DNA of 20,000 nucleotides, from the NCBI GenBank assembly GCA_052055015.1, contig JBQJIT010000010.1, one strand, 5' to 3'. Positions 1 through 8,826 of the stretch are shown here, one piece after another (positions within the stretch are counted from its first letter, which is position 1; the number at the start of each line of letters is the position of its first letter). The notes under the pieces were generated by a model that made no database searches, had not been told where the DNA came from, and saw only the letters and a list, made by a program, of their open reading frames with translations. This stretch comes from Malassezia furfur (Eukaryota). The position numbers and the translations under genes were made by a program.

Positions 1-70
1 GTCGCGACCCCGGGCGCCTTCCTCTCTGCCATCACACCCCAGCGAGGCACTCGGACCGGATACAAACAAT

Positions 71-1577
71 ATGGTTAGCAGATAAACGCGGCGATGCGTT
101 CAGGATCCGGAACGACGGAAGTTGTGCCACTTGTCATGTGCGGCAACGCCATGCATCAATGACTGCATCTCTGGACTGCCGCGGAGCCATGGCGGCCTAG
201 CCACGTAGCGCCGCGCCGCGGAGGCGCCCTGCGTCGTGAACACGGGGCGTGCGGTGCGGCGGCTCGATGCGACACGGGTGCGACATGTCGACGAGCAGTG
301 GCCTGGAATAAGGTCCGACGATGCGCGCCGTCCACACCCCACTCGGTCGGACAGTCGGTGGGCCGTGGACGGCACCGATTTGCAAGGTGCGAGCTGTACG
401 TGCGTGGTGGGTGTGCCCGTACGACGGCGTCCGTACGGGAGGGGACGGTGCCTATGTGGCGCTGTGCCGTGTCGAGGCCCAGGCCGCGCCGTGGGCGGCC
501 TGTAGGCCCGTGCGATGCAAGAGCGTCGGACGGACGCGAGATGAGACATGGGTGGCCCTGCCTGAGGCGTAGGGTGGCGTACGAGAGCAGCAGCTGCGGG
601 CACCTGCTGGCGGAGGTCTGCCGTCCCGCGCCGTGTCTGCCCCTCCCCTGCCTCCCGGTGATGATCCGAGATGCAGTCATTGAGCGTGAGCCAGGGCCTG
701 TAGCGCCGATGCGCTGCGAGGAAGGTTCCTGGCTCGGCCCGTGCGATGCGGGCCGTGCATCGCGAGAGGCGATGGGATGCGCGTGTCGCTGGACAGAGCG
801 ACCGACGCCGGTCCTGACGTGGAGCCAGCGCGAATGTGTTGGAATGTGTACTTACCCCGCTATTTTTTTCGCTGACAGTCTACGAACCTTGACAAATGTA
901 CGTTGTGCCCACTGACGCAGCCCTTGACGACATCATCTCGACGAAGCGCAAGCAGACGCCCCGTCGCCCCGCGAAGCAGTCGAGCGCCAAGAAGAACAAG
1001 GGTGCCAAGGCTGCTGCGCTCGGTGGCTCGGCCGCTGCGGCTGTCAGCAACGCTAACCGCCAGCAGCCGCCGGTCGTGTTCCCGGGGCGCAACCAAAAGG
1101 GCCCGGGCAGCAAGGTGATTGTGAGCAACCTGCCCGTGGACGTCACCGAAGCGCAGGTCAAGGTACGTGCATCTGCTTATATGCCAGGAGCTCTTCTCGA
1201 CGACGATCGGCCCGCTGCGCCGTGCGCTGATGAGCTACAAGGCCAACGGCCAGTCGACCGGTGTGGTTACGGTCGAGTTCCAGCGCGCCGAGGATGCCAA
1301 CCGCGCGTATGCGCAGTACAACAACCGCCTGATCGACAGCAAGCGGCCGCTCAAGATTGAGGTCGTGGTCGACCCTGCCCGCGCGACGCCCGCGATCGCG
1401 GCCAAGCCCGCGGCCAACAAGGCGACCAAGAACAAGGCGGCCAAGAAGGGCGGTGCCAAGAAGGCTGCACCGCGCACGCCCAAGACCGTCGAGGACCTGG
1501 ATGCCGAGATGGAGGACTACGCAAAGCAGGGCGCGTCGGAGAATGCGCCGATGCAGGACGCCCAGCCGGCCGCGTAA
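71..1577 (+). CDS. YRA1: RNA-annealing / mRNA export adaptor, Yra1/Mlo3/ALYREF family. Proposed exons 71-73, 879-897, 921-1162, 1188-1577 (217 aa)
   Basis: The spliced product reads M-STNLDKSLDDIISTKRK (N-box, cf. yeast Yra1 MSANLDKSLDEII), then an RRM (KVIVSNLPVDVTEAQVKELF...GQSTGVVTVEFQRAEDANRAYAQYNNRLID..PLKIEVV) and a C-box KTVEDLDAEMEDY. GT-AG introns restore the frame. Exons 2-4 are well supported. Exon 1 (ATG at 71 in an A-rich context, ACAAACAAT-ATG-GTTAGC) is the only ATG-GT I found upstream and is less certain. Confidence 0.88.
74..878 (+). other. Predicted long first intron of YRA1 (805 nt)
   Basis: Donor GTTAGC directly follows the ATG. The 3' end TATTTTTTTC-GCTGAC-AG (U-tract, branch point, acceptor) joins in frame to TCT ACG AAC CTT GAC AAA. 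The acceptor is well supported. The donor is inferred. Confidence 0.65.
150..688 (+). repeat. Long-range inverted repeat / RNA stem: arms 150-186 and 652-688, perfect 16-bp core 156-171 with 668-683
   Basis: TCAATGACTGCATCTC (156-171) is the exact reverse complement of GAGATGCAGTCATTGA (668-683). It extends with bulges and G-U pairs to about 33 bp. Confidence 0.85.
898..920 (+). other. YRA1 intron 2 (23 nt)
   Basis: GTACGT...CACTGACGCAG. Removal gives LDK-S-LDDII, the conserved N-box. Confidence 0.9.
1163..1187 (+). other. YRA1 intron 3 (25 nt)
   Basis: GTACGT...GCCAG. Removal joins ORF 896..1360 to ORF 1167..1577 as QVK-ELF within the RRM. Confidence 0.9.
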
Positions 1578-1705
1578 ATAGAGTCGTCGACCGTAGTTTG
1601 CGATGCGACGCCGTGGGACGTGGCGAGGGGCCCGTGGGGCGGGGCGCGTGACGCTGCGCCCGCGTACCTGTGCCTCCACTTTCGCCGACCGACCGTGCGC
1701 TGGAC

Positions 1706-4700
1706 ATGGGCGAGCCGGGCAGGGGGCGACGTGCACCGCGCGCGGTGCCTGCCTCGCCGCTGTTCGTCGATGCCGAGTTTGCCAAGATGCGTGAAGCGGC
1801 GCCCAGTCCGCCCGGATCGAGCGAGGGCGTCGCGGCGCTGAACGCAGCGCTACTCCAGGCACAGATCTCGTCGCCGATCGTCTCGGCCTCGGCCTGGGAC
1901 GAGGGCGCGGAGCCGGACCGCGCGGGCACACGGCTCACCGAGCTCGTTGAGGAGCTGCACAGGTGCCCGCCGACCGACTATTCCGAGATGGTGCGTCGCC
2001 GACGCTGACCCAGCTCCGCATTACCACCGACGTACACCATGTGCTCATCGAGCACCGCGGCGCGGCGCGCGTCTACGAAGGATTTGGGCGCTACGGCGGG
2101 TTCCTTGTGGTGATGCAGGTACTCTCCTTTCTGCAGCTTGGTGCGGACGATGCGGCGCGCGTCATGCGGTCGCAGCTGCTGCTTCGAACGCTGACGCTGC
2201 TGTGCGATGCCATTACCTACAGCCGCACGAACCTCTTCTCGTTTGCACACATGCCCGGCTGGGATGGTTTTCTGCACTCGCTCGAGCTTGCGGCGGACGC
2301 GGGTGCTGCACAGACCACCGCGAGCCGCCTGGTCGCGCTGCTCTTTGGCCTTGCGACCGGCGACGTGGCGGGCGGTGCGCAGCACTTTGGCGTGGTATGG
2401 CGCGCGCTGCCCGACGTGCTTGCGCCCGATGCCACGGTCGCTGACGTGCGCATGCGCCTGCCACACTGGCGCACCCATGCCCTTGTGCATCCACGCGCCA
2501 TTGAGGGCGCGCTGCGCATCGCCGCGGCGGACGACGCCGTGCTGCTTGCGTCGTATGCGCTGCTCACCGACCTCACCGGCGCACCACGCAACGTAGTTGT
2601 GCTCGCGCGCTCGTCCTTGGTCTCACGCATGCTGCGTGCGTGGCTCGACGAGGGCGTGCCGGCGACGCCCACACGCACGCTCGTGCACGCGTGGCGTGCG
2701 CACCTGCTTGAGACGGTGCTGTGCGACGGGATTCGTTCCTCCGAGGATGTGCAGCTTGTGCTGCAAATGCTCACAAGCACGCCGCTCGACACACAGCTGC
2801 CGCTGCTGCACCTGCTACGCGGCGTCGCGCGCTCGGCGTACCGCCCAAGCGCGCTGACGTTTGCGCCGAGCACGTCGCCTGGTGGCGGCGGCGCCTACGT
2901 TGCGGCGCTGCGGCGCGCTTTTCCGCCAGAAGACGCGCGCTCGAGCGGCTACTCGCTGGCGGTCACGCTGCGTGTCGACCATGCAGACGGCGATGGGACG
3001 CTCGACCTCGTGACGATCGGCGACCGTGTGCGCCTCGCGCTCGACCTGCGCACGCTGCGCCTCGTGTATGCCACGGCGGCGCCCATGACGCTCGAGCGCG
3101 CACAACTGTTGCTGCACACGTGGCACCACGTCGTGCTCACGCACGCGCGCGCACCGGCGCACTCGCCGTCGACACTGCACGTGTACGTCGACGGCCAGCG
3201 TGTCGCGAGCGTGCAGGCAGTCTACCCTGCGACGCTCGCACGCGCGCCGCTGCTCGTCGGCTGTGCACCGAATCAGCCTGGTGTACGTGCGGCGCACCCC
3301 GCCTCGGCGACGTGGCTGCTGAGCTCGCTGCTGCTCCAGGACGGCGTGATGCCGTCGTCGGTGCCGCTGCTTCTCGCCCTGCTCCCGCCGCAGTACATGG
3401 GCAACCTGCAGGGCGCGCTCGCGCGCTTTCTGCCGTACGCGGCGCAGGCGCGCATGGAGCGCCGCCTCGCGCAGCTTGCCGCGGCCAACGCCCATGCACT
3501 AGGCCACGGCGAGACGCGTGCGTACGCGGCGCTGCACACGGCGCTGCACGATGCGGGCGCCGCCGTCTTCCCCCTGGCGCACGTGTACATCCACCTCGGC
3601 GCAGCACACACCCTGCGCACCGCGACGGGCGTGCTGCTGCTCGACAAGGCCATGCCGAGCGTCGATGCGGCGGTGCAGTCGCCCGGCGGGCACGCCCGCA
3701 TCCTGGGTGTGCCGACCATCACCGTGCCGCGCGACGTCGGCGACGCGGTGTGGTCCGCGGGCGGCGCTGTGGGCCTGCTGCAGCTCGTCGAGCGGGCCGA
3801 GTCGGGCGCGGCGCTCGAGGCATGCGTGCGCCTCTTCCTCGAGCTGGTGAGCCGCACGTGGCGTCTCGCGGCGGACGCCGAGCGCGCACGGGCGTACCAT
3901 GTGCTCGGGTTGCTGCTGCGCGACCGCGCAGCGCGGCTCACGCGCGGCACGCTTGACGCGTTGCTCGATGCGTGTGTTGTACGGGGTATGCTGTGCAACG
4001 TGCCGCTGTACCGTGCCGTGCTCCTCGACGCGTGTCTCTGGGCGCAGACGTCGCACGAAGTCCAGGATGCGTACCTCGCGCACTTCCGCACCGTGCTGCG
4101 CGGTGCGACGGGCGCCAGCAACGCACAACGCCTCGCCAAGTCGCCCGTCCTGCGCCACGTGCTGTACGTTGCGCGCCTCGCACCGCACCGCGCGGACGCA
4201 TTGCAGGCGCCGCTCGCCGACGCCGTGCACGTCGTTCTTCATGCGCTGGTCTCAGCCCGCTCGGTTCAAGCGCTCTTGTTGTTTGTGGTAGCTTACCTTG
4301 CACCCTGGACGCCGCCTGCACCGCTGCACGGCACCGCACGTACCGACGCCGACGAGGTGCGCAGCGTCGAATGCGCTGCCGTACAGGTGCCGCCCGCACA
4401 GCCGTCCCCGGACGCGCGCCTCGCACGCCTCGCACACGCGCTGCTGCTGCGCTTTGTGGACGTGTACGCGGGCGATGCGGGGCGCCTTGCACGTCTCGCG
4501 CGGTGGCCGTGCGCGCGGCGGCTCGTGCTGCTCGTGCGTCCCGGCATGGCGCCGGACGTCGCGGCGCCGGCACTCGCTCTCATCGCGCAGCTCCTCCCCC
4601 ATGCACGTTTCCGCGAGCAGTGGGATGCGCACGGCGGATTCCGTGTGCTGGAGCGCGCACTGCCGCCCATGTGGGATGCGCCCGACGTGCTGCCGGCGCT

Positions 4701-7700
4701 GTGGCACATGCTGCTCGGCGCACGCGAGCCGCGTGCATCGCTGTATGCGACGTATGCACCGCGCTTGCCGCCGGCGCCGCTTGCGTGCCCCGCGGCGCTG
4801 CGTGTGCTGCTGTTGTGCATCGCCGAGGGTCTCGCGCACGAGCGCACCGAGGTGCGCCACCGGCGCCGCTCGCTGCCGACCTCGCCACAGCAGGCCGCGG
4901 CGTCCGCTCGGCGCGTGCGCCTGCAGGAGTCGGTGCAGCTGCTCGTTGCGTACGCGCCGCACCCCGAAATGGCGCGTGGCCTGCTCGTCGCCCCGTCGCT
5001 GCTGTGCCTTCTGCACGCGCTCACACCGCTGCTCGCCATGGACGGCGCGCCACCCAGCGCGCTCGTCACGGTGCTGTGCACGGACCTGCTCGAGATGCTG
5101 GCGGCGCGCATCGCCGCGTCCATCACCGCGAGCGGCACCATCTCGCTGCTGACGAGTGCGCACCAGGCGATGCCTACGCCTGATCCCGTACTGCAGTCGC
5201 GGCTATGTGCACGGCTGTACACGCGCGTCGTGGCGCACGTCTTCCCCCTGCCAAGCGCGACGCGGCGTATGCTGTCGATGGGCGCCGCGCTGCTCAAACT
5301 CGCGACGAACGAGTCGATCGGGGATGTGCCGCTGCAGAACGAGCTGTTTGTTGCCGGCGCACACCTGCTGGACGCGGCCGCCGCGCACCCAGGCTACCTC
5401 ATGCCGCGCTCGGCGTCGCAGGCGGCCGCGGCGATGCAGCGCAATGTCCTGCATGCATTTGCAAGCACGCCCCTCGATGCACGTACGTCGCCGCCGTGCG
5501 TGTTCTGCGCGACGTACTGGGCGCACCTCGAGGCAGACACGCCGTTTGCGCAGTGCGTCGCGAACCGCACCGTTGCGCGCATCCGCACCGTGTGGGATGG
5601 GGACGCAGCCACCACGCTCGTCCTCCTCGCCGAGACGCACCCCGAGGTGGTGGCCGAGGGTGCCTTGATGGAGCTGGTTGATGCGCTGCGCCATGAGCAC
5701 TCTCTATCCCTGCCCATGCCGCCGTTCGCTGAGGTGTGGGCGGCCGCCGAAAGCGACCAGGCGCTCTTCCGCCGCGGACTGCACCTCGACCGTGTGGCGC
5801 AGCTGCATACCTCGCTGTTCAAGCCGAGTGCGCGTGCCCAAGGCATCCTAACGACACACGCGCGCCTCACTCAATGGCACGCGTCCGTTGCCGAGACGGA
5901 CCGCGTGCAGTTTGCGCGCTATGCCCAAGATCTGCGCGACGATGCGCACTACGTGCGCCAGGCGTGGCTGGACGCGAGCGAGGCGCTGGCGCTGCAGCGC
6001 GGCGCGCCGCACGACTGGCAGCTCGATCCCACCGAGGGCCCCGGGCGTGCGCGACTCAAGCTCTTCCCCGTGATGCCGAGTGATGCTGTGCCGACGGAGC
6101 GCAGTGCGGATGCGGCGCTTCCCAAGGAGCTTGCCGAGCTGGCGCCGGACGATGTGGGCGGGACGTCGGATGCGGCGCTCCTCGATGATGCCCAACTCGC
6201 TGCCGAGATCGAGGCGGGCACTGCGCCGCCCGAGGCTGCGCCGGCCGCCCCAGCGCCGGCCGGTGCGCCGCCAGGCGCCCCTGCACCCGAAGCGCCGCCC
6301 GTGCCGCTGCCTGACGACGCGGACGACACGTACCGCATCGTGTTGCGCTCGCTGCATCCCGGCGAAACCGCCGAGGCGCTCATCAACGCGTCGCGCGTGC
6401 TAGGCATCGAGACGCGGGGCTGCCTCGTGGTGGCGAGCGCGGAACACCTATATGTGCTGGACGACTACTTCCAGCGCCCCTCGGGCGAGATTGTGCATGT
6501 AGCCGATGTGCCGACCGCCGAGCGTGACGAGCTGATCGCGGCCGCGTTTGCGTCCGCACAGCCGTCGACCACACCGCTCGAGCACGCCGCGGTGCTGTGC
6601 TGGGCCTGGGACGCCCTCACGCTGTGCCTCCGCCGCGCATGGCTGCACCGCCGCACGGCGCTCGAGCTGTTCTTTGCGGACGGGCGCAGCTGTCTGCTCG
6701 TGTTGGCCGACGCCGCCCACGTCGAGCAGGTGCTCACGCTCGTGCGCGCCAAGGCGCGGCGGGCGCTCACCGAGGCAGAGCGCATGATCGACGGCCTGCG
6801 CGAGCCGCCCAGCGTCCCGCATGCCGCGCAGCGCCTCCCCGGTGTGCTCCGCCGAACGCACGCTGTGGCGCCAACGACGCGGGCGTGGCAGGAGGGCCGC
6901 CTATCGAACGCGGCCTACCTTATGGCGCTCAACACGCTCGCGGGCCGCACGATGAACGACCTCACCCAGTTCCCCGTGTTCCCGTGGGTCATCGCCGACT
7001 ACACGAGTGGCACGCTCGACCTCGACACCGCCACGACTTTCCGCGACCTCGCGCGGCCCATGGGTGCGCAGACCGAGGCGCGGCGAACGGACAGCGCCGA
7101 GCGCTACCAGCAGCTGGTCGAGGTCAACATGGACCCGTTCCACTACGGCACGCACTACTCGACGGCCGCGAGTGTGTGCGGCTTCCTGGTGCGCCTGCGC
7201 CCCTTTGCGCACTGGCTCATCGAGCTGCAGGGCGGCAGCTTCGACCTTGCCGACCGCATGTTTGCCTCGGTCGGCCGCGCGTTCCACTCGGCCTCGGCGC
7301 AGGCGCGCGGCGACGTGCGTGAGTTGATCCCCGAGTTCTTCTTCCTCCCCGAGCTCTTTGTCAACACGAACCACTTTGCGCTCGGCCGCACGCAGGCCGG
7401 CTCGGCGATCGGCGACGTGGAGCTGCCGCCGTGGGCGCACGACGACCCGTGGCTGTTTGTGCAGCTGCACCGCGAGGCCCTAGAGTCGCCGTACGTCAGT
7501 GCGCACCTCCACGCATGGATCGACCTCGTGTTTGGGTACAAGGCGCGAGGCCAGGCGGCCGTCGACGCCCTCAACGTGTTCCACCCGCTGTCGTACGCAG
7601 ACAGTGTGGACGTCGCGCGCATCGACTCGCCGCTCGAGCGCGAGGCGGCTGCCCAGGTCATCCACAACTTTGGGCAGACTCCGCGCGCGCTGTTTGCACG

Positions 7701-8826
7701 CCCGCATCCGCCCCGCGACGTGCGCACGGTCGACGACCTTGCGCGCACGCCGCACCTGCTCGTCCCGGCACGCGGACCTGCCGCGCAGCTCGGCGCACCG
7801 GTGCACGCGCTCGGCGGCACGCCCACGGCCGTACGTGCCGCGCGGCGCGGCGAGGCACTGTTCCCTGGCGCCCTGCTCACGTACGGCCACCTCGACGGCT
7901 CCATGCACGTCGTCCCCACGCAAACGCCGCACACGCCGCACGTCACCGAGCAGGCGGCGCCCGCCCGCATCACGGCCGTCGCCATCGTCGGCACGACGCA
8001 CGTCGTCGTCGGCGCCGAGGACGGCACGGTGCAGCTCTTTGGGCTGCACACCACGCGGTCCGAGCTCGAGCCGTGCACAGTCTGGTCGGGCCATGCGGCG
8101 GCGGTCGTGTGTGCGGCCGCGAGTGCGACGTGGCGCATCGCCGTGACGGGCGCGGCGGACCATACGGCGATCGTGTGGGACGTGACGCGCCAGCGGTACA
8201 TCCGCACGCTCCGTGGGCATGCCCAGCCGCTGGCGCACGTTGCGATCGACGACGAGCGCGGCTACATTGCAACGGCGGCGGGCGACGAGGTGTGCGTGTA
8301 CTCGATCAACGGCCATCTCCTCGCACGGCAGAGCACACGCGCGGCGACACGCCGGCCCCTGAGTGCGCTCGCGTTCTGTGCGCGTGACTTTCACGTCGGC
8401 GGCCTCGCTGTGCTCGTTACGGGGCACGCGGGGCAGCTGCTCGTGTGGCGCGTCGCATCGAACCACGAGGCGACGCCGAGCGACGCGCCGCGCTGGCGTC
8501 TAGCGTTGCAGGCGACGCTCGACGCGCCCAGCCAGGCGCCCATCACCGCCGTGCACGTCGCCACGCTCGACACGCTGTGCACCGGCGACGAGGCCGGCGA
8601 CGTGTATACGTGGTCGCTGCCCGGCGCCGCGGTGACACCGCCGCGGCTGCCCGAGGGCGTGTGCATGAACGCCGCGTGCCAAAAACGCTTTGGCTTTCTC
8701 GAGCTGAAGCGCACCTGTGGCGCGTGCGGCGGCGTGTTTTGCGGCGCGTGCACGGTGCCTTACAAGGATACCCGCCTCTGTACATACTGCGCGGCGACGC
8801 TGAGTGCGCGGGGCCTTGAGCTGTAG
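1706..8826 (+). CDS. BEACH-domain protein (Beige/Bph1/Lvs/WDFY3-like): ConA-like lectin, PH, BEACH, WD40 repeats, C-terminal FYVE-like finger. Exons 1706-1990 and 2014-8826 (~2365 aa)
   Basis: BEACH motifs WQEGRLSNAAYLMALNTLAGRTMNDLTQFPVFPWVIADY, HYGTHYS, DVRELIPEFF, VELPPWA, WIDLVFGYK and FGQTP (~6874-7716). PH motif RRAWLHRRTALELFF. ConA-like WHHVVLTH...YVDG. WD40 GH...WD repeats. Eight-Cys finger at 8662-8790. The start could instead be the ATG at 1787. Confidence 0.92.
1991..2013 (+). other. BEACH gene intron (23 nt)
   Basis: GTGCGT...GCTGACCCAG. Joins ORF 1670..2008 to ORF 1963..8826 in frame (YSEM-LRIT). Confidence 0.8.

Follow-up and report, generated by a model that had tools for sequence, protein, structure and literature searches.

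YRA1 is the textbook example of self-limited expression, in which a long intron that splices poorly holds down the gene's product; in Saccharomyces cerevisiae that intron lies about 285 nt into the coding region, measures 766 nt, and combines a deviant branch point with a normal donor. Published work describes the S. cerevisiae pre-mRNA as subject to autoregulated export and Edc3p-mediated decay via modular intronic elements (PMC2864733), and all hemiascomycetous homologues as having a long intron with a divergent branch motif (PMC2911113). For Yarrowia lipolytica, PMC2911113 gives intron 1 of YRA1 (YALI0A20867g) a length of 850 bp, with TGCTGAC 3 bases from the 3' splice site, and reports inefficient splicing of this intron and degradation of the retained form by nonsense-mediated decay (NMD). 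In Cryptococcus neoformans, an intron-retaining mRNA of YRA1 (CNG03240) is up-regulated in upf1-delta, according to PMC5006051. Here we describe the YRA1 gene found at the start of a 20,000-nt stretch of Malassezia furfur DNA (assembly GCA_052055015.1, contig JBQJIT010000010.1; hereafter the window). We conclude with high confidence that its first coding exon consists of the ATG alone (positions 71-73, plus strand) and is followed by an 805-nt, phase-0 intron (74-878, GC 66.8%) which ends in the acceptor CAG (876-878). A full-text literature search found no description in print of a start-codon intron in Malassezia YRA1, and for intron retention in basidiomycete YRA1 the C. neoformans paper was the only relevant one to emerge.

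The Malassezia case fits the known YRA1 pattern, and differs from it in that the intron stands right after the ATG and has a frozen, odd donor. S. cerevisiae YRA1 and the window gene are alike in belonging to the same family, in having one exceptionally long intron in an intron-poor genome, and in that the unspliced RNA is unproductive. They differ, on the usual description of the yeast intron, in that exon 1 is ATG only in Malassezia, the retained form carries no fragment of Yra1, and the odd signal is the donor. With Y. lipolytica YRA1 the window gene shares a long first intron, and GCTGAC stands 1 nt before the AG in the window, as against 3 nt for TGCTGAC; Y. lipolytica is an ascomycete, and there NMD of the retained form has been shown. 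C. neoformans provides a basidiomycete YRA1 with an intron-retaining mRNA, but in an intron-rich genome.

The window gene is the YRA1/ALYREF mRNA export adaptor of a M. furfur-like genome. When coding exons 2 (879-897), 3 (921-1162) and 4 (1188-1577) are joined, they form an open frame of 216 codons with a stop at its end, which encodes a YRA1/ALYREF-type protein. The frame opens with STNLDKSLDDII, the family's conserved N-terminus minus its Met, and exon 2 (TCT ACG AAC CTT GAC AAA T) encodes S-T-N-L-D-K and the first base of a Ser codon. Both the N-terminal box (NLDKSLDDII) and the C-terminal box (EDLDAEMEDY) are present in the spliced frame and align with YRA1/THO4 entries of Malassezia, Ustilago and agaricomycetes; we take these two boxes to be what defines REF proteins. 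The first half of the RRM is encoded by exon 3 and the second half, together with the C-terminal box and the stop, by exon 4; exon 4 taken by itself reaches 32 bits with RRM_1 (E 1.2e-7; cut-off 20.7). The match of exon 4 to the C-terminal FoP_duplication family scored 24.2 bits, against a curated cut-off of 24.6, and PF13865 is precomputed for many homologues. Exon 3 is identical (100%) to M. furfur YRA1 entries, and exon 4 shares 96% identity with one from GenBank. Between these exons lie two small introns, of 23 nt (898-920, GTACGT...CTGACGCAG) and of 25 nt (1163-1187). M. restricta-like loci lack both.

The codons immediately before 879 are TGA (873-875), which is in frame, and CAG (876-878); read-through therefore cannot give a Met, which must come by splicing. 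The statement of an earlier, sequence-only reading of this DNA (the first-pass annotation) that STNLDK follows directly on the acceptor at 878 without a Met is thus borne out. ATGGT occurs a single time within 1-878, at 71, where it would provide both an ATG-only exon and the donor GTTAGC (heptamer GTTAGCA, 74-80). If unspliced, the frame from 71 to 85 reads ATG GTT AGC AGA TAA, that is, MVSR-stop, and both this peptide and the 805-nt intron with its GTTAGC donor are as the first-pass annotation had them. Its claim that the only upstream ATG-GT lies at 71 is correct for an exon of exactly ATG and fails otherwise, as there are 46 in-frame ATG...GT candidate first exons within 1-878, including MCWN followed by GTGTAC (834-845). 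Given so many candidates, the window sequence alone cannot pick exon 1, and the choice is made by comparison across lineages. The 10-mer ATGGTTAGCA, which comprises the ATG and GTTAGCA, is found once in the 20,000 nt on both strands, at 71; in shuffles of the window its mean count is 0.01, with a match in 1 of 200 shuffles.

To obtain related loci, Joint Genome Institute (JGI) metagenome contigs were scanned with an alignment of Malassezia Yra1 proteins, which yielded six loci (L001-L006). The M. restricta/arunalokei-like group, L004-L006, shows 98.5-99.8% identity among its introns; intron 1 does not differ between L001 and L002, and the L001 translation is, by eye, the same as M. sympodialis SHO77390. 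We found ATGGTTAGCA exactly once in five of the six loci, each time upstream of the homologous acceptor; the exception, L003, is a 1,015-nt contig that ends short of the intron-1 donor region. Measured from this 10-mer, intron 1 is 403 nt long in L004-L006 and 467 nt in L001/L002. Among the candidate first exons of the window, L004 (11 candidates) and L001 (32), the only one common to all three is ATG followed by GTTAGC. In both L004 and L001, moreover, the exon-1 ATG is the first ATG past a conserved, CCAAT-containing promoter block (GCTCGGGGTTTTACGGAT.ACCAATC ... CGGCCGAATAT; L004 additionally has TATAAA). This block separates YRA1 from the divergent gene for cytochrome bc1 subunit 8 (UcrQ/QCR8), which lies upstream of YRA1 on the minus strand (L004 1730-2062; L001 1615-1990). 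Where the window reads MVSR-stop if unspliced, L004 reads MVSMKKYGDP-stop and L001 MVSIYNVGARLAS-stop, so that keeping intron 1 brings an early stop at codon 5 in the window, codon 11 in L004 and codon 14 in L001.

Annotated proteins and spliced RNA contigs of other species agree with this start. The M. restricta model XP_027484682, from an RNA-seq-informed annotation in which only RNA-seq-derived introns were kept, opens MASNLDK, as does M. pachydermatis KAL4401290, and M. sympodialis SHO77390 opens MSSNLDK. We assume that SHO77390 is drawn from the curated M. sympodialis annotation, in which 99% of introns have RNA-seq support (PMC5389616, Table 2). M. globosa-like Logan contigs (P0167, four contigs of P0195, and P0202; 913-952 nt each) also open MASNLDK, and they are spliced at every intron visible in the genomic read-through P0100. 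Spliced RNA contigs and RNA-seq-informed models thus place the start at M/xSNLDK in four other species. The ATG-only gene model is accordingly supported by the donor 10-mer in two other lineages, by the models of three species and by the spliced M. globosa-like contigs; it is present, unremarked, in three annotations already. In Ustilago maydis (MSMNIDKP...) and Microstroma (MNLDKP...), the ATG lies within the same exon as the N-terminal box.

The three GenBank models of M. furfur itself have three different starts (MCTYHATFFGRQ-, MGCACRW...- and MYVVPTDAA-). All three miss the ATG-only exon, each runs through intron sequence, and they are mutually inconsistent; several other Malassezia YRA1 entries are truncated or extended. 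In the window, the frames of the MCTYHATFFGRQ- and MGCACRW...- models are out of register with STNLDK, which indicates that this stretch is not under coding constraint. Another M. furfur lineage (P0001, P0161, P0179) carries a 1-nt indel and several substitutions relative to window positions 844-878, the final ~36 nt of intron 1. The indel brings internal ATGs, out of frame in the window, into frame with STNLDK, and these ATGs are the ones that annotators used.

Intron 1 of YRA1 is exceptional for the genus and has been kept long across related species. M. restricta introns have a mean length of 37.2 nt and a median of 30.0 nt (n=2,150; PMC9241646, Table 1), and those of M. sympodialis a mean of 30 bp (n=5,350; PMC5389616). 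The first-pass annotation described the intron as over 30 times longer than four other introns in the window; this is confirmed for the three that were checked, at 898-920 (23 nt), 1163-1187 (25 nt) and 1991-2013 (23 nt). Read-through GenBank models imply open sequence upstream of the acceptor, at least ~186 nt of it for M. psittaci and ~102 nt for M. cuniculi, and on this account the long intron looks genus-wide. The comparison among Malassezia loci that the earlier reading had called for therefore upholds both a conserved long YRA1 intron and its survival of genome compaction (403-805 nt in three lineages, against ~30 nt for the genus). That it stays long where introns are ~30 nt argues that intron length is itself under selection.

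Apart from four small elements, little in intron 1 is conserved between lineages. Global MAFFT alignment of the three introns missed even the shared donor, and short-word BLAST was used instead; the intron body proved barely alignable, with no inter-lineage block longer than 14 nt. The donor GTTAGCA is identical in the three lineages and off the local GTACGT/GTGCGT/GTATGT pattern; a regular-expression search with an open reading frame (ORF) filter returned too few true local introns for a donor consensus. Two further elements recur near the 3' end. In each of the three lineages CCGGTCC (808-814 in the window) precedes the acceptor by 65-85 nt. It can pair with the remaining conserved element, GGACCGGGRCAGAC, at +73/+80 in L004 and L001, and is also complementary to CAGGATCCGG, at 101-110 of the window, GGA(T)CCGG near the donor.

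The second element, TGGAATGTGTACTTAC (840-855), contains a GTRCTTAC core; TGGAAT..GTRCTTAC stands 24-47 nt upstream of the acceptor in the three lineages (L004 2659-2675; L001 about 2615-2634). Since CTTAC is the sole branch-like motif in another L004 intron, the element is plausibly a distal branch site, and from its sequence it is probably branch-site-like, with a T-rich tract (861-869) behind it. The tract (T7), a proximal branch-like GCTGAC (871-876) and the acceptor CAG together occupy 861-878. By sequence the element also resembles a weak donor for a normal-sized intron of 31-54 nt; no retrieved contig shows such a junction. The reverse complement of the core equals a consensus donor (GTAAGTAC), and the core matches the 5' end of U1 small nuclear RNA. 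At the same position, the read-through peptides of other species have V-L-T or A-Y-P, consistent with GTACTTACC or GCTTACCC on back-translation. The element could thus serve as a branch site, a decoy donor or a protein-binding site. In some of the tiny Malassezia introns CTRAC is missing and the acceptor is preceded only by CTTAC, CTCAC or CTTAT close by (L004 about 3090-3125; window 1163-1187), and the Malassezia branch consensus looks like CTNAY.

The extra length of the window intron is accompanied by a perfect 16-nt inverted repeat (156-171 and 668-683, 496 nt between the arms; self-BLAST E 5e-4), which pairs as a helix in the minimum free energy fold and was found in the window lineage only. 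It could be a structural stem whose loop holds most of this lineage's additional intron sequence, or the ends of a small insert. With regard to an insert resembling a miniature inverted-repeat transposable element, we found no extra copies of the repeat in the 20-kb window and saw no target-site duplication; as for internal duplication, the intron holds only a 14-nt direct repeat besides the inverted one. S. cerevisiae RPS17B and RPL7B have zipper-stem introns (for the concept, see PMC2536676), in which a segment close to the donor pairs over long range with a complementary one upstream of the branch point. The window resembles them in its 16-bp stem and in GGA(T)CCGG/CCGGTCC, with an excess over shuffles that is unclear in two of the three lineages. 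The structural branch distance was 19.3 in L004 against 18.2 in shuffles, and 10.2 in L001 against 14.3; it was as short in 58% and 17%, respectively, of 60 dinucleotide shuffles, and the window value of 2.0 has no shuffle control. Among 400 shuffles, the duplex energy between donor-proximal and branch-proximal segments was as good in 1.5% for the window, 34% for L004 and 38% for L001. By duplex energy, zipper-stem pairing is thus significant in the window only, and not above shuffles in L004 and L001.

In four Malassezia lineages, RNA-derived contigs still carry sequence from before the intron-1 acceptor and have the downstream introns removed, and it is because of this removal that we take them to be RNA-derived. 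Retainers of intron 1 were found among M. furfur-like contigs (P0161, with seven contigs, the longest 1,531 nt; P0189; P0191), M. restricta-like contigs (P0128, with at least 210 nt of intron; P0124, with four contigs; P0130; P0131; P0003), contigs of a further species (P0132, P0007) and M. globosa-like contigs (P0199). Some contig ends read as ...DRKSVV, which we take to be Illumina adapter. On the basis of these contigs from relatives, appreciable retention of intron 1 is quite probable. In Ustilago, the U. maydis model (cluster P0151, P0153, P0010) starts MSMNIDKP, with a break before LDQIM, and 21 P0153 Logan contigs keep the intron after the first exon; this suggests that YRA1's first intron is retained there too, at the position of Malassezia intron 2.

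The explanation that we favour is as follows. Transcription would start upstream of the window or in its first bases, and the first coding exon would end with the ATG at 71-73. Intron 74-878 would then be removed via the GTTAGCA donor, a branch site at GTACTTAC (848-855) and/or GCTGAC (871-876), and the acceptor CAG, to give a product that begins M-STNLDKSLDDII... The long intron would be kept selectively throughout the genus and be spliced less efficiently than the ~25-nt introns downstream; retained transcripts would give only MVSR and no Yra1, and would probably be degraded. By analogy with S. cerevisiae, Y. lipolytica and C. neoformans, retention may set Yra1 dosage or feed back on it. We hold this explanation as a whole (the gene structure, the inefficient splicing and the control of Yra1 dosage) with moderate confidence. 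Its most specific part, feedback on intron-1 splicing that depends on Yra1 itself, is a tentative proposal made by analogy, and we lean slightly away from it.

Several points weigh against this explanation. Splicing from 73 to 879 in the window lineage is predicted from conservation of sequence alone, and no contig with a spliced M/STNLDK junction was seen among 15 listed of the 16 members of the M. furfur-like cluster. In the M. furfur lineage with the MCTYHATFFGRQ-STNLDK frame, an extended Yra1 might in principle be translated from RNA that keeps the intron or starts internally. The donor deviates less than the first-pass annotation had implied in calling it non-consensus, and its weakness is unproven: GTTAGCA differs from the local donors, but GTTAGT serves as the donor of the 24-nt intron 2 of the same gene in L001. 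Assembled contigs carry no quantities, and the retained forms may be nuclear precursors. Retention is furthermore not unique to intron 1, since P0201 looks like a M. globosa contig that retains intron 2.

Some of these points suit an alternative that we consider unlikely and yet the most serious of its kind, namely that the start-codon intron is real but constitutive. Its length would then be tolerated, or kept for other reasons, such as promoter-proximal elements, intron-mediated enhancement or spacing from the divergent promoter, and the retained contigs would be ordinary nuclear precursors with no role in feedback. Such an intron would lie directly downstream of the bidirectional promoter region shared with UcrQ, as this one does, and the poor conservation of the intron body, its twofold variation in length and the retention of another intron (P0201) are all in keeping with it. 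It does less well with an intron that stays at 400 nt or more in three lineages of a genus where ~30 nt is usual, with the read-through models of M. psittaci and M. cuniculi, which imply more than 100 nt there too, and with a non-consensus donor that stays fixed over 10 nt in an otherwise drifting intron. In three other lineages of fungi, moreover, YRA1 carries introns that are long or retained and are coupled to decay.

It is far less probable that ATG 71 is not the start and that the mRNA begins inside 74-878, with a short intron (846-878, giving MCWN-STNLDK), an internal ATG or a non-AUG codon. In-frame short exons do precede GTRCTTAC in the three lineages (MCWN before GTGTAC in the window, MRWNS before GTGCTT in L001, and ...WWNG before GTACTT in L004), M. 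furfur RNA contigs open an ORF at MCTYH..., 12 codons upstream of STNLDK, and the three GenBank M. furfur models use internal ATGs. However, a ...WN/STNLDK junction, which the first-pass annotation had named as a refuting case, was looked for and appears in no retrieved RNA contig, all of which read on past GTRCTTAC as far as the acceptor; the short exon of L004 would have to start at an in-frame ATG no nearer than 52 codons upstream. The window ATG at 844 is out of frame, and the TGA at 873-875 stops read-through. The three M. furfur models disagree with one another, and four other species start at M/xSNLDK. The candidate non-AUG codon ACG (882-884) is not conserved, L004 having GCA TCA. The short-intron MCWN model and the non-AUG start were both rejected on these grounds.

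Equally improbable is a separate gene or non-coding RNA (e.g. an intronic small nucleolar RNA) housed in 74-800 and accounting for the length: the fold is more stable than shuffles in the window (-443.6 kcal/mol, where shuffles gave -408.7; z -4.9, equalled by 0 of 20) and in L001 (z -3.25), and there are the perfect inverted repeat and long ORFs on both strands. But a GC content of 67% would lead one to expect such ORFs, the longest stretches kept between lineages inside the intron do not exceed 14 nt, and folding of L004 shows no advantage over its shuffles (z -0.59). The search for such a gene, also named beforehand as a refuting case, found nothing in Rfam at E<=1 for window 1-2000, for L004 or for L001, and no Pfam family for four ORFs inside intron 1.

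Upstream of the start codon, which has an A at -3, positions 1-70 contain no ATG and are the probable 5' untranslated region, with the promoter off-window. Downstream, the next gene (1706-8826, plus strand) starts ~130 nt past the YRA1 stop, has its own 23-nt intron (1991-2013) and contains a large ORF listed at 2,287 aa; its product has a BEACH/WD40/FYVE-type look by eye only and is a candidate for that class.

The finding may bear on the gene family in a further way, which we offer as speculation and regard as rather improbable. The long, inefficiently spliced YRA1 intron may be an ancient dosage sensor of the export machinery, maintained on both sides of the ascomycete-basidiomycete split, even in genomes whose remaining introns have all contracted to ~25-30 nt, and rebuilt at the start codon in Malassezia. 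The parts of such a sensor would be the ATG-only exon, the frozen weak GTTAGCA donor, and the distal GTRCTTAC, as branch site or decoy donor, with the T-tract. Lineage-specific long-range stems, such as the 16-bp stem, would make an over-long intron spliceable, and Yra1, once bound to the RNA as it is made, would shift the outcome between splicing on one side and export or decay on the other.

For M. furfur, the analysis corrects the annotation of YRA1, which in three GenBank entries has three different wrong N-termini. The locus also provides a compact, genetically tractable system for studying how splicing machinery adapted to very small introns copes with a long one, and both M. furfur and M. 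sympodialis are transformable, according to PMC5654937. More widely, fungi in general may control the dosage of their export adaptor by splicing.

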